Assembly (NCBI GenBank): GCA_037308085.1
Contig: CP147779.1
Span: forward strand, 864,001-928,000
From: Promethearchaeati archaeon SRVP18_Atabeyarchaeia-1
GTDB taxonomy: Archaea; Asgardarchaeota; Atabeyarchaeia; Atabeyarchaeales; Atabeyarchaeaceae
Direction of reading: 5' to 3'
Length of the DNA: 64,000 nt
Position 1 is the first letter of the stretch; the number at the start of each line of letters is the position of its first letter. Positions 56,515 through 61,519 of this stretch are shown piece by piece. A program made the translations under genes and the position numbers. The notes beneath the pieces are model-generated. The model saw only the letters and a program-made list of their open reading frames with translations. It did no database searches and was not told the origin of the DNA.

Positions 56515-56590
56515 TTCTCAATCAGACACAAAGAGGCTTCGGAAAGGCGTTGCACGCCTGTCCCTGCCGGCAGCCCTGTTCATTAAGGTT
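56515..56590 (-). promoter_or_regulatory. Candidate SECIS element in the vhuU 3' UTR
   Basis: AUGA (56583-56580)...CUGAU (56525-56521) enclosing GGGCU/AGCCU, CGG/CCG and AGGCGU-GCA-ACGCCU stems, ~20 nt after the vhuU stop; folded by eye only. Confidence 0.5.
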
Positions 56591-56604
56591 TCACACCGGC
56601 TAGT

Positions 56605-56754
56605 TCATCCAGATCCGATTTGAACTTCTTTGTTCATTAGCTCTTTACCATTCTCGTCAACCACGAGGAGATGGGCTGCGCATGAAAGTCAGCAATCGTA
56701 ACAGCGCACTACCATTTCCAGGAGGTTGAGTACTTTCTCGTCGACTTCTGGCAT
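56605..56754 (-). CDS. vhuU: Selenocysteine-containing hydrogenase peptide VhuU (49 aa; UGA at 56691-56689)
   Basis: [49 protein letters not shown]; supplies the L2 motif missing from the upstream large subunit; GAGGA RBS. Confidence 0.92.
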
Positions 56755-56784: not shown

Positions 56785-58149
56785 CTAAGCTGCGATCATA
56801 GGCTTCGGCAGCTTCAACTTTTCATGTGCCTTGTCTTCAATCACCTGCTTTGCAATGATCTTCAGAGACTTCTCTATTGCCCCGATGTTGTGGTTCGTGG
56901 CAACTATCAGGTTTGCCTTGGTAATTATTCCTTCCTTGTCTGTCCAGTAATTGTGTATAAGAGTCCCTCTTGGCGCTTCCACCACTCCAACTCCGCACCC
57001 CTCGAGCGGCTCGACCGTTTCGAGCTTATAGTCCTTGCTGACAATGTCTGGATCCTCGAGCAGTCTCTTGGCACTCCCCACAGCGTCAAGTAACTCGATA
57101 ACCCTCGCCCAGTGATACGCGAATGTTGCATGGCAGGGTCTTCCAAGCTTATCTCTGAACTGCTTAAGCGCTTCGTTTCCACGGGGAGTAGCCATCTTGT
57201 CAACGACGTTTATTCTCGCCAATGGACCTGCTCTCCAAATGCCGTTGGGGTACCCTGCTGGCTTATAGAATAGGTGTGTGGCATAGCAATGGGGAACTAC
57301 CTTTTCTCCCGCGACATCCATGTATTTGCTGCTTGGGACGTCAGCCTCAATCTTTCCCGAGGGCGACATGACTCTAATGTTGCCATCATAGAAGTTGTGT
57401 ACGCCATTCTTCGCTAATCCAATGTAGTATGTGTCTACGACGCCGATCTTTGTTACAACATCCCAGTAGTCTTGGACTATTTTCTGCAGTAGCCCAGCGC
57501 TGAACTCGGCTAGCTCCATTGCCCTATCCATCCTTTTTATCCACTCGTCTCTCTGCTCTTCTGTTAGTCCCTTTGTCATGCCTCCGGGTATTGCTGTGAC
57601 TGGGTGGACTGATTTCCCTCCAACGACTGCGCACAACTCTTGGCCATGCTTCATTAGTTCAATAGCCTTCTTTCCTGCATCAGGGAGCTTGCTGATGACC
57701 GTCACAACGTTGCGGGTCTCCGGTGGAGCGAAGGGTCCCAGAAGGAAGTCCGGTGCAGCTAGAACGTAGAGGTGAAGTGCGTGACTGCTAATCTGCTTCG
57801 CCAGGAGAAGCAACTCTCTCAGCTTCTTCGCTGGTTCAGGCGGGTTGACTTTCCAAGCATCTTCAACAGCCTTCACAGAGGCTAGGTGGTGAGGTTCGGG
57901 GCAGATGCCACATATGCGAGGCGCTATAATGCGGGCATCTTCCGCCAATCTGCCTTCAAGAAACTTCTCGAAGAATCTCGTGGAGTTGACGTTGAACTGA
58001 ACGTCAGCGACTTTTCCCTTATTCATCTTTATTGTTATCGAGCCGTGCCCCTCAAGGCGAGTTATGGGTTCGATCTTGATCTCGTCTTCCTTTTGTTCCT
58101 TAGCCACACTTTCCTTCTGCTCCTTGGCAACGCTCGCTCTACTTTTCAT
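56785..58149 (-). CDS. vhuA: F420-non-reducing [NiFe(Se)] hydrogenase large subunit lacking the C-terminal L2 motif (VhuA type)
   Basis: EPITRLEGH, PRICGIC (L1), VEAPRGTL, IVATNHN; no DPCxxC. Confidence 0.92.
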   Translation of the reverse strand: MKSRASVAKEQKESVAKEQKEDEIKIEPITRLEGHGSITIKMNKGKVADVQFNVNSTRFFEKFLEGRLAEDARIIAPRICGICPEPHHLASVKAVEDAWKVNPPEPAKKLRELLLLAKQISSHALHLYVLAAPDFLLGPFAPPETRNVVTVISKLPDAGKKAIELMKHGQELCAVVGGKSVHPVTAIPGGMTKGLTEEQRDEWIKRMDRAMELAEFSAGLLQKIVQDYWDVVTKIGVVDTYYIGLAKNGVHNFYDGNIRVMSPSGKIEADVPSSKYMDVAGEKVVPHCYATHLFYKPAGYPNGIWRAGPLARINVVDKMATPRGNEALKQFRDKLGRPCHATFAYHWARVIELLDAVGSAKRLLEDPDIVSKDYKLETVEPLEGCGVGVVEAPRGTLIHNYWTDKEGIITKANLIVATNHNIGAIEKSLKIIAKQVIEDKAHEKLKLPKPMIAA

Positions 58150-59560: not shown

Positions 59561-61519
59561 CTATTGAATCTGCTTCTCAGCTAGCAGCGCTTCTATCTGA
59601 GCAAAGATCTGCGAGTCCTTGAAATGGTTCTGTGTTATGCAGCCACTTGGACACGTTGCAACACAGCACCCGCATCCCTTGCACTGCACGCTGTTAATCT
59701 TCGCTTTTCCTTCTTCTATGGATATTGCGCCAAATGGACACATGTCTATGCAGGACAAGCAGCCACTGCACTTCTCGGAATTGACGACGCTGTAGAAAGG
59801 CTCAACTTCAACCTTCCCCTTTGACATCAGCGACGCAGCGCCGGATGCTGCTCCCTTCGCTTGAGCAACAGCATCAGGAATGTCTTTCGGTCCTTGCACA
59901 GCTCCCGATATGAAGATTCCATCAGTGAGCGTATCGACTGGTCTAAGCTTAGGATGAGCCTCAAGATAGAAACCATCTGCGCTGCGTGATATCTTGAGTA
60001 GGTGCTGAACTTCTTCCGCATCCTTCCTCGGGACGAGTCCCACACTGAGCACAACAAGGTCAGCGTCGAGCTCGACGGGTCTTCCGAGTTCTGTGCTTTC
60101 GGCTCTCACGATCAAGTTCCTAGTTGTCGGGTCCTCTAGGACTTCTGCTGCTCTGCCTCGGATGTAGGTAATGCCGTATTCTCTCTGAGCGCGCTCATAG
60201 AATTCCTCGTAACCCTTACCGAACGCGCGAACGTCCATGTATAGTACATAAACATTCGTGTCTGGATGGTGCTCCTTGAGTTGCCTCGCGTGCTTTGTCG
60301 CATACATACAGCAGACTCTTGAGCAGTAAGCGTTCTTCCTGACGTTCCTCGATCCCACGCACTGGATGAATACTACTCTCTTGGGCACTTTAAGATCCGA
60401 AGGTCTCACAACCTCTCCACCAGTAGCCCCGAAGGCGCTAAGCATTCTTTCAACCTGAAGACCAGTTACGACGTTCTCGTATGTTCCGTATCCGTATTCT
60501 CCCGTCGGGTCGTACGGGTCGAAGCCAGTCGACGCTATTATCGTTCCAGCCTCGACTTCTTCCTCCGTGGGTTGCTGGTTGAAGTCTATTGCTTCGGGCT
60601 CGCAGGCTTTTACGCATAGTTTACACTTTATGCACTTGTCCATGTCAATTGTGTACTTATTTGGAACAGCCTGCGGGAACGCCATGTAAATCGCCTTCCT
60701 TGGCTTCAGACCCAGCTCGAATTCATTGGGAACACTAACGGGGCACACTTCTTCACACTTCCCGCATCCGTTGCACTTGGATTCGATAACGTATCTGGGT
60801 TTCTTCTCTATCTTGACCTTGAAATTCCCAACATAACCATCAATACTCTTGACTTCCGAGTATGCATGAAGCTTGATGTTTGGGTGGCGACCAACCCCAG
60901 TCATCTTTGGAGTGAGAATGCAGGCCGAGCAGTCCATTGTCGGAAAAGTCTTGTCGAGCTGGATCATACGCCCTCCAATGGTGGTATTTTTCTCGACTAA
61001 GTGAACTTCAAACCCAGCTTCGCCCAAGTCCAAGGCTGCAGATATCCCAGCTATTCCTCCACCGATTATGAGGCAGCTTTTCTTAACTGGAACTTCGATG
61101 GGTTCAAGCGGCTCTATGTTGGAGGCTTTTGCCACCGCAGATCGCATTAGATCCTTTGCGATCTCAAAGGCCTTCTCAGGCTCGTGCATATGGCACCATG
61201 TGTCGTGTTCTCTGATGTTTGCCTGTTCGAACAAGTATGGGTTTATGCCCGCGGCCCTGATGGCATTCCTAAAGGTGGGCTCATGCATTAGCGGGCTGCA
61301 GGCAGCTACAACTACGCGGTTCAATTTGTGCTCCTTAACGTCATTTCTTATCATTTCTTGGCCAGGGTCGCTGCACATGAACCTGTAGTCCTTGGCCAAA
61401 ACGACATGGGGCAGCTTCGAAGCGTACTCCGCAAGCTCCTTGACGTTGATGACGCCTGCGATATTAGTTCCACAATGACAAACATAGACACCGATTCGAA
61501 GTTCAGACTCGTCGCTCAT
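59561..61519 (-). CDS. hdrA: Heterodisulfide reductase subunit A
   Basis: VCHCGTNI, AACSP, GGGIAG, DKTFPTMDCSAC, QCVGSR, CSRVCC, ferredoxin domains. Confidence 0.96.
   Translation of the reverse strand: MSDESELRIGVYVCHCGTNIAGVINVKELAEYASKLPHVVLAKDYRFMCSDPGQEMIRNDVKEHKLNRVVVAACSPLMHEPTFRNAIRAAGINPYLFEQANIREHDTWCHMHEPEKAFEIAKDLMRSAVAKASNIEPLEPIEVPVKKSCLIIGGGIAGISAALDLGEAGFEVHLVEKNTTIGGRMIQLDKTFPTMDCSACILTPKMTGVGRHPNIKLHAYSEVKSIDGYVGNFKVKIEKKPRYVIESKCNGCGKCEEVCPVSVPNEFELGLKPRKAIYMAFPQAVPNKYTIDMDKCIKCKLCVKACEPEAIDFNQQPTEEEVEAGTIIASTGFDPYDPTGEYGYGTYENVVTGLQVERMLSAFGATGGEVVRPSDLKVPKRVVFIQCVGSRNVRKNAYCSRVCCMYATKHARQLKEHHPDTNVYVLYMDVRAFGKGYEEFYERAQREYGITYIRGRAAEVLEDPTTRNLIVRAESTELGRPVELDADLVVLSVGLVPRKDAEEVQHLLKISRSADGFYLEAHPKLRPVDTLTDGIFISGAVQGPKDIPDAVAQAKGAASGAASLMSKGKVEVEPFYSVVNSEKCSGCLSCIDMCPFGAISIEEGKAKINSVQCKGCGCCVATCPSGCITQNHFKDSQIFAQIEALLAEKQIQ

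Follow-up and report, generated by a model that had tools for sequence, protein, structure and literature searches.

The window, by which we mean the whole stretch of DNA analysed (64,000 nucleotides), carries a hydrogenase operon, and Pfam matches and translation give the gene order hdrA-mvhD-mvhG-mvhA and then vhuU, a minus-strand gene of 49 codons and a stop at 56754-56605 (Table 1). The large subunit, mvhA/vhuA, has its N-terminal ligand motif RxCGxCxxxH in the form RICGICPEPHH, with cysteine columns that are invariant in 37 relatives; at the other end, as an earlier note on this DNA had observed, the DPCxxC motif is missing, and the 454-residue translation stops at ...KLKLPKPMIAA, with a TAG exactly 30 nt ahead of the vhuU ATG. 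That note had also pointed to an unlisted 49-codon ORF at this distance and at the right coordinates, leaving the strand unstated; translation settles it as minus, where the ORF is clean, and the plus-strand reading of 56605-56754 is nonsense. How does a gene at the end of such an operon go unlisted? We think that gene finders overlook it because one of its codons is a UGA that would be read as selenocysteine (Sec). As a separate matter, translation from the annotated start of mvhA (58087-58149, minus strand) places extra N-terminal residues ahead of the conserved IKIEPITRLEGHG, and these contain SVAKEQKE-SVAKEQKE, a perfect tandem repeat; the solved homologues start about 20 residues after this annotated N-terminus.

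Table 1. Features of the vhu operon and of the RNA element at its end (window positions)
Feature	Position	Strand	Basis
hdrA, 652 aa, uninterrupted ORF, Cys form	59561..61519	-	Pfam Fer4, Pyr_redox_2 and FAD-binding matches
mvhD/vhuD, 157 aa	59074..59547	-	Pfam PF02662 FlpD, E = 4.6e-51
mvhG/vhuG, hydrogenase small subunit, 312 aa	58139..59077	-	Pfam PF01058 Oxidored_q6, E = 9.6e-25
mvhA/vhuA, truncated [NiFe(Se)] large subunit, 454 aa	56785..58149	-	translation; PF00374 NiFeSe_Hases; 9sfi_g
vhuU, predicted selenoprotein with the last two Ni/Fe ligands, Sec22 and Cys25, plus His28	56605..56754	-	translation, alignments
vhuU start codon ATG	56754-56752	-	translation
vhuU Cys21 codon TGC, at the Pro position of canonical D-P-C/U	56692..56694	-	codon census, alignments
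vhuU in-frame TGA, predicted Sec22, terminal Ni ligand	56689..56691	-	aligned to Sec (X) of 9sfi_M and Cys of MvhA/FrhA; conserved TGA
vhuU His28 codon	56673-56671	-	translation
vhuU 21-residue C-terminal extension past His28, presumed maturation endopeptidase substrate	56608..56670	-	solved VhuU ends one residue after His; two HycI genes in the genome
vhuU terminal TGA	56607-56605	-	translation
SECIS core AUGA, overlapping the vhuU stop codon	56605..56608	-	sequence; arrangement published for Loki VhuU.1 (PMC4989117)
SECIS upper stem (56604-56596 with 56570-56563) around a 25-nt A-rich apical region, possible CCU/AGG ministem	56563..56604	-	folding, covariation
3' GA of the kink-turn quartet	56561..56562	-	G/A-A-C follows the stem in relatives
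Small GC hairpin immediately 3' of the SECIS, AGGCGU-GCAA-CGCCU	56545..56559	-	same place in relatives
Lower helix, 3' strand UCUUUG, pairing with CAAAGA at 56632-56627 inside the coding sequence	56529..56534	-	folding of relatives

That the small ORF is VhuU, as had been proposed, is borne out by alignment: it lines up both with 9sfi_M, a solved VhuU chain of 27 residues (...LRAYDP-X-YSCAAH), and with the C-terminal ends of MvhA and FrhA in their full-length form (RAYDPCLSCATH). In these alignments, the C-terminal ligand motif [C/U]xxCxxH falls on VhuU as U22-L-S-C25-A-A-H28, and the canonical Asp-Pro ahead of its first ligand is altered: the Asp is kept, and the Pro has become Cys. The best solved relative of VhuA is likewise a truncated protein, the 418-residue VhuA 9sfi_g (E = 2e-132, chain residues 4-415). 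A pattern for the motif written at the level of codons has a single match in this genome; of 400 genomes scanned from the phylum, 195 match it, and the reversed pattern used as a control matches none, which is far above chance.

The mvhA and vhuU genes share a reading frame at this locus, and for that reason, we could model VhuA and VhuU together, as the earlier note had suggested, in the form of a read-through fusion (AlphaFold, with natural fused homologues as alignment rows). Confidence in the model is moderate (pLDDT 69, pTM 0.73). It superposes on full-length MvhA (5odc_F) with Z = 37.2 and an rmsd of 2.8 A over 421 residues, and because the superposed range (model residues 22-488) takes in the VhuU segment up to Sec, VhuU would supply the missing end of the fold together with two of its four metal ligands. 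In other words, the large-subunit fold is, in the model, completed by the VhuU peptide. At both metal-ligand segments, the pLDDT falls below 50, so the model gives no direction for the Cys21 side chain. We also considered read-through as biology and set it aside: the frame relation of the two genes varies among relatives, and the shared frame here is therefore incidental.

Is the internal UGA really selenocysteine? TGA is an ordinary stop in this genome, where it terminates 361 of the 995 ORFs of 300 aa or more. Among 400 genomes of the phylum, 332 matched the VhuU peptide in a six-frame protein search, and of the roughly 150 best matches listed, all except one contain exactly one in-frame TGA; such conservation, in hundreds of genomes, is why we do not take the TGA for a sequencing error. 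We find it hardly credible, then, that the codon is a real stop or an error and the ORF a remnant or artefact, a reading that has in its favour only that the ORF is missing from gene callers' lists and against it that the TGA and the frame downstream of it (LSCAAH plus the tail) are conserved in hundreds of genomes, that a SECIS and the full Sec machinery exist in this genome and that a hydrogenase deprived of VhuU would miss two of its four metal ligands. Sec decoding of the vhuU UGA is well supported, as the earlier note had read it.

That note had gone on to say that Sec machinery should exist elsewhere in the genome, and so it does. The genome, a single contig of 2.81 Mb, encodes SepSecS (382 bits in the genome search), EFsec (289 bits), PSTK (147 bits) and a selD that has an in-frame TGA of its own. 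SepSecS and EFsec lie at 197-200 kb, and their counterparts lie at about 209 kb in a sister genome that is also a single contig. Two HycI genes are present as well. The selD gene (G000:C1:940244-941125, plus strand) is found 12 kb past the end of the window; Sec-containing SelD has been published for Asgard archaea.

The tRNA-Sec took more finding. ARAGORN, run with and without introns, reported no tRNA-Sec in the genome; a strict 9/4 structural scan returned no candidates, because the gene is split by inserts; and the best Rfam match was an intron-bearing tRNA-Val. The gene was located through a weak match to RF01852 beside SepSecS, a match of only 21.3 bits in Rfam on account of the introns, and was identified by structure, synteny and conservation. 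It adjoins SepSecS at G000:C1:196286-196463 (plus strand; about 178 nt, outside the window; L001:511-688). Its 9-nt acceptor strand, GGCGCCCGA, is fully complementary to UCGGGCGCC (9/9), which is followed by G-CCA, with G as the discriminator and the CCA encoded; the anticodon arm is ACCGGA-CUUCAAA-UCCGGU, and the T stem has 4 bp. Three inserts split it, in the D loop, the variable arm and the T loop, and in two sister genomes, the exons are invariant and the inserts variable. A T-loop intron has been published for the tRNA-Sec of Loki (PMC4989117). Introns are a general habit here: ARAGORN counts 9 intron-free tRNAs in the genome and 22 when introns are allowed, and most tRNA genes carry introns, some of them at noncanonical positions.

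The other requirement is a SECIS, and a candidate begins at the stop codon of vhuU itself. Its upper stem comprises nine positions with an A.A and an A.G mismatch and shows compensatory changes in 7 of 8 predicted pairs among 29 relatives. The element fits an eSECIS-like type II core (AUGA...GA, stem, CCU/AGG ministem), for which the published model has a GA_[G/A]A core, an upper stem of 7-15 bp with at most 2 mismatches and a ministem of 2-8 bp (PMC11227280). The predicted apical loop above the ministem is 8 nt (UAAUGAAC) in a single-sequence fold, and the type II model of Huang et al. 2024 gives 2-6 nt. Rfam, searched over the whole window at the gathering score, returned no match, and no curated SECIS family fits. 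Judged from its sequence, the element at the 3' end of vhuU is the published lokiSECIS/eSECIS-like element, and the doubling of AUGA as the VhuU stop codon has itself been published as an oddity (PMC4989117; PMC11227280).

Around this hairpin lies a larger structure. Unconstrained folding of 113 nt around the stop codon gave a three-way junction common to 30 of 31 relatives, in which a lower helix joins the last eight or so vhuU codons to a distal 3' segment and encloses both the kink-turn hairpin and the small GC hairpin, whose loop is often GCAA. The final codons of the 21-residue extension thus double as the 5' strand of this helix, and the SECIS RNA may put some constraint on the conserved ...IGSG peptide at the C-terminus. 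The stability of the lower helix exceeds that of shuffled controls in all 31 loci (mean z = -2.8, with 23 of the 31 below -2), and at many positions counted in codon register, it has 3-5 Watson-Crick pair types. In the minimum-energy fold of this genome's own sequence, the helix is short (CAAAGA/UCUUUG) and is rivalled by an alternative pairing. Huang et al. 2024 describe a lower stem with UGG_CCA pairs for the VhuU family; we found in their paper no mention of a hairpin inserted between the kink-turn GA and the lower helix (PMC11227280). Here the junction occupies 56529-56632 (minus strand), and it is in the same place in loci L022-L050, L086 and L185.

We now come to the residue that first drew attention to this gene, the cysteine directly before Sec. 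The earlier note called the change from Pro to Cys unusual, which it is against every solved relative and against the methanogen and bacterial ones and is not across the Asgard clade, where it is the norm. The first 30 relatives all read D-C-U-L-S-C-[A/S/G]-A-H. In a census of the Asgard phylum in which the codon before the TGA was left free (195 of 400 genomes matched), D-C-U accounts for 146 of the 150 matches listed, among which both TGT and TGC codons are used; the non-Cys forms in that list are two D-P-U from one genus, one D-N-U and one D-F-U. The Asgard-wide comparison of UGA and Cys for which the earlier note had called thus finds both the TGA and the C-U pair conserved across the phylum. 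A second extra Cys noted earlier, in R-C-Y (residue 18), is indeed present here, but it varies as C, S or N and occurs in D-P-U forms too. This genome has two further [NiFe] large subunits, and both retain DPC.

Outside the phylum, we scanned species genomes globally for motifs whose pre-Sec codon does not begin with T, a design that leaves Cys out, and obtained at least 120 loci. D-P-U is found in 119 of the 120 listed and D-I-U in one, and because Cys codons were excluded by design, this count is no sign that D-C-U is absent outside Asgard. The D-P-U loci listed are mostly fused Sec-MvhA of about 440-480 aa from Desulfobacterota, plus split methanococcal VhuU. The exception, a split Sec-VhuU of a Methanobacteriota metagenome-assembled genome (L082, JAMOPY010000041.1), reads RSYD-I-U-LSCAAH, is the only non-Pro form among those 120 and sits on a long branch next to Methanococcales. 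Fused full-length Sec-MvhA with D-P-U and an in-frame TGA (L053-L172) is very common in Desulfobacterota, in the genomes of more than 110 species. Another Asgard genome has a split VhuU paralogue with Cys for Sec and the extra Cys kept (RAYD-C-C-LSCSAF; G118:C227, L187:1868-2020, plus strand); in this paralogue, Phe stands in place of the invariant His (D-C-C-L-S-C-S-A-F).

A maximum-likelihood tree of 37 large subunits gathers the Asgard sequences in one clade (100/100); its sister group is the split methanococcal forms, and the fused forms of bacteria lie outside. Within that clade, the D-P-U genus is nested as sister of a D-C-U family (100/99), and the simplest history would be one change from Pro to Cys at the base of the Asgard clade followed by one reversal. 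Near-invariance over so wide a phylogenetic span, with synonymous codon turnover, is why we consider Cys21 to be under purifying selection. By these comparisons, D-C-U is real, old and the norm for the Asgard clade rather than something special to this genome. The Pro of D-P-C/U, by the same evidence, is a conserved feature and not a ligand, a position at which P, C, N, F and I are all found in nature.

What, then, is the cysteine for? The reading that we favour, with somewhat better than even confidence, is that Cys21 is a tolerated structural replacement with no chemistry of its own. P, N, F and I occur naturally at this position, and a nested lineage has gone back to Pro; from this, we argue that the enzyme can work without the Cys21 thiol. 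A search for a partner cysteine found, among the 37 large subunits, no VhuA Cys column that tracks the D-C-U type, and the sole Asgard-enriched VhuA Cys (position 175) is shared by the D-P-U revertants. Near-invariance, we must also argue, is not what one expects of a neutral residue, and with synonymous codon turnover, it does not obviously fit a purely space-filling role. The retention of the Cys21 equivalent in the Cys-for-Sec paralogue (D-C-C) counts against a purely structural role as well.

Might the Asgard Cys21 then be functional, whether by forming a selenenylsulfide reversibly with Sec or by serving transiently as a fifth ligand, so as to protect or reactivate the [NiFeSe] centre or to aid metallation of the free 49-residue peptide? 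We hold this possible, although we would not count on it. If it were true, the archaeal lineage closest to eukaryotes would have its own, new way to tune the active site of a hydrogenase.

As a resolving or protecting thiol, a role that we regard as rather doubtful, Cys21 would form the selenenylsulfide with Sec22 on oxidation, shield Se and Ni and speed reactivation. The analogy is with thioredoxin reductase, for which selenenylsulfide chemistry of an adjacent Cys-Sec pair is established (PMC10779653), and Sec in [NiFeSe] enzymes has been linked to protection from oxidative damage (PMC13188914). Cys in 146 of the 150 genes listed, through synonymous codon changes, and its retention in the D-C-C paralogue speak for such a thiol; yet Sec is here a Ni ligand and would have to come off the metal to make an Se-S bond, one Asgard genus has returned to Pro, N, F and I are found in nature, and the Asgard hosts are strict anaerobes.

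We think it unlikely that Cys21 helps in metal delivery or maturation, for example by binding Ni transiently or by giving HypA/HypB or the endopeptidase a handle. Such a function could matter for a free 49-residue peptide that needs to be metallated and docked, the change from Pro to Cys sits in the split-gene lineage, Sec is reported to be directly involved in [NiFeSe] maturation (Marques 2017, as cited in PMC10779653), and where residue 18 is Cys, the motif becomes C-x-x-C-U-x-x-C. However, residue 18 varies (C, S or N), and the split methanococcal VhuU keeps D-P-U and matures normally. What remains of our weighting goes to some role other than a structural, protective or maturation one. If Cys21 has chemistry of its own, it would be a new second-sphere or redox feature of [NiFeSe] catalysis; if, as we favour, it is a structural replacement, it is a lineage marker.

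Taken as a whole, the best explanation, of which we are highly confident, is that vhuU encodes the Sec-VhuU of a split group 3c [NiFeSe] hydrogenase and that Cys21 is an old Asgard substitution. The enzyme would work as follows. VhuU is the C-terminal piece, encoded by a gene of its own, of a group 3c (Mvh/Vhu-type) large subunit, and in making it, the ribosome would read the internal UGA as selenocysteine, directed by a eukaryote-like SECIS that begins at the gene's own stop codon, with EFsec bringing the Sec-tRNA(Sec) made by PSTK, SepSecS and SelD. VhuU would dock onto VhuA, where Sec22 and Cys25, with the two Cys of RICGICPEPHH, would hold the Ni-Fe centre, and the 21-residue tail past His28 would probably be removed by a HycI-type endopeptidase once nickel is inserted. 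With MvhG, MvhD and HdrA, we infer, the enzyme passes electrons from H2 into flavin-based electron bifurcation. As for the Cys that replaces Pro ahead of Sec, it would have become fixed a single time, at the root of the Asgard Vhu clade.

Much of this belongs to a family already published. A 2016 paper described Sec-VhuU, with this SECIS, in Lokiarchaeota (Mariotti et al., PMC4989117), a group for which the earlier note had mentioned Sec-VhuU; in 2024, 68% of Sec-using Asgard genomes proved to have it (Huang et al., PMC11227280), and it is among the selenoproteins listed for the complete genomes of Atabeyarchaeia and Freyarchaeia (Valentin-Alvarado et al. 2024, PMC11291895). The supplement to this last paper numbers SepSecS and EFsec as genes 201/202 in 'Atabeya-1' and 212/213 in 'Atabeya-2', which agrees with where they lie here (197-200 kb) and in the single-contig sister (about 209 kb), so that the genome analysed is probably Atabeyarchaeia-1. 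It is also in the literature that Asgard group 3c hydrogenases, complete [NiFeSe] enzymes though they are, come out of standard gene calling looking truncated and short of ligands. In the main texts of these three papers, and in a 2026 review, the motif is written simply as UxxC, with no mention of proline, an adjacent cysteine or a selenenylsulfide, and the searchable literature holds nothing relevant on a vicinal Cys-Sec pair or selenenylsulfide in [NiFeSe] or Asgard hydrogenases. Within that literature, the conserved Cys beside Sec is the only unreported point.

How does this system compare with its known relatives? From the published Asgard VhuU selenoproteins, the gene itself is no different: the subunit is split, about 50 residues long, with one Sec, an AUGA over the UGA stop, an intron-bearing tRNA-Sec and an mvh/hdr context; the apical region, however, is here 25 nt long and resembles type II, and the form reported to predominate in the family is type I. 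The Methanococcales VhuA/VhuU (PDB 9sfi/9t1s, chains g and M) share the split large subunit, form the sister clade in the tree and have a VhuU with Sec, Cys and His and a C-terminal extension, but theirs reads RAYD-P-U-YSCAAH and goes with a GAA_A-type archaeal SECIS (PMC11227280), in contrast to D-C-U and a kink-turn SECIS here. The fused Sec-MvhA of Desulfobacterota has the same motif frame (...EMAVRAYD-P-U-xSCATH) with an in-frame TGA but is a single bacterial polypeptide of about 440-480 aa, the outgroup in the tree, with Pro before Sec in the loci listed. Thioredoxin reductase, finally, also places a Cys directly before Sec, in Gly-Cys-Sec-Gly, a resemblance of two residues only: its fold is unrelated, and its pair sits on a flexible tail that cycles as a selenenylsulfide (PMC10779653), whereas the Sec of VhuU would be a Ni ligand in a buried active site.
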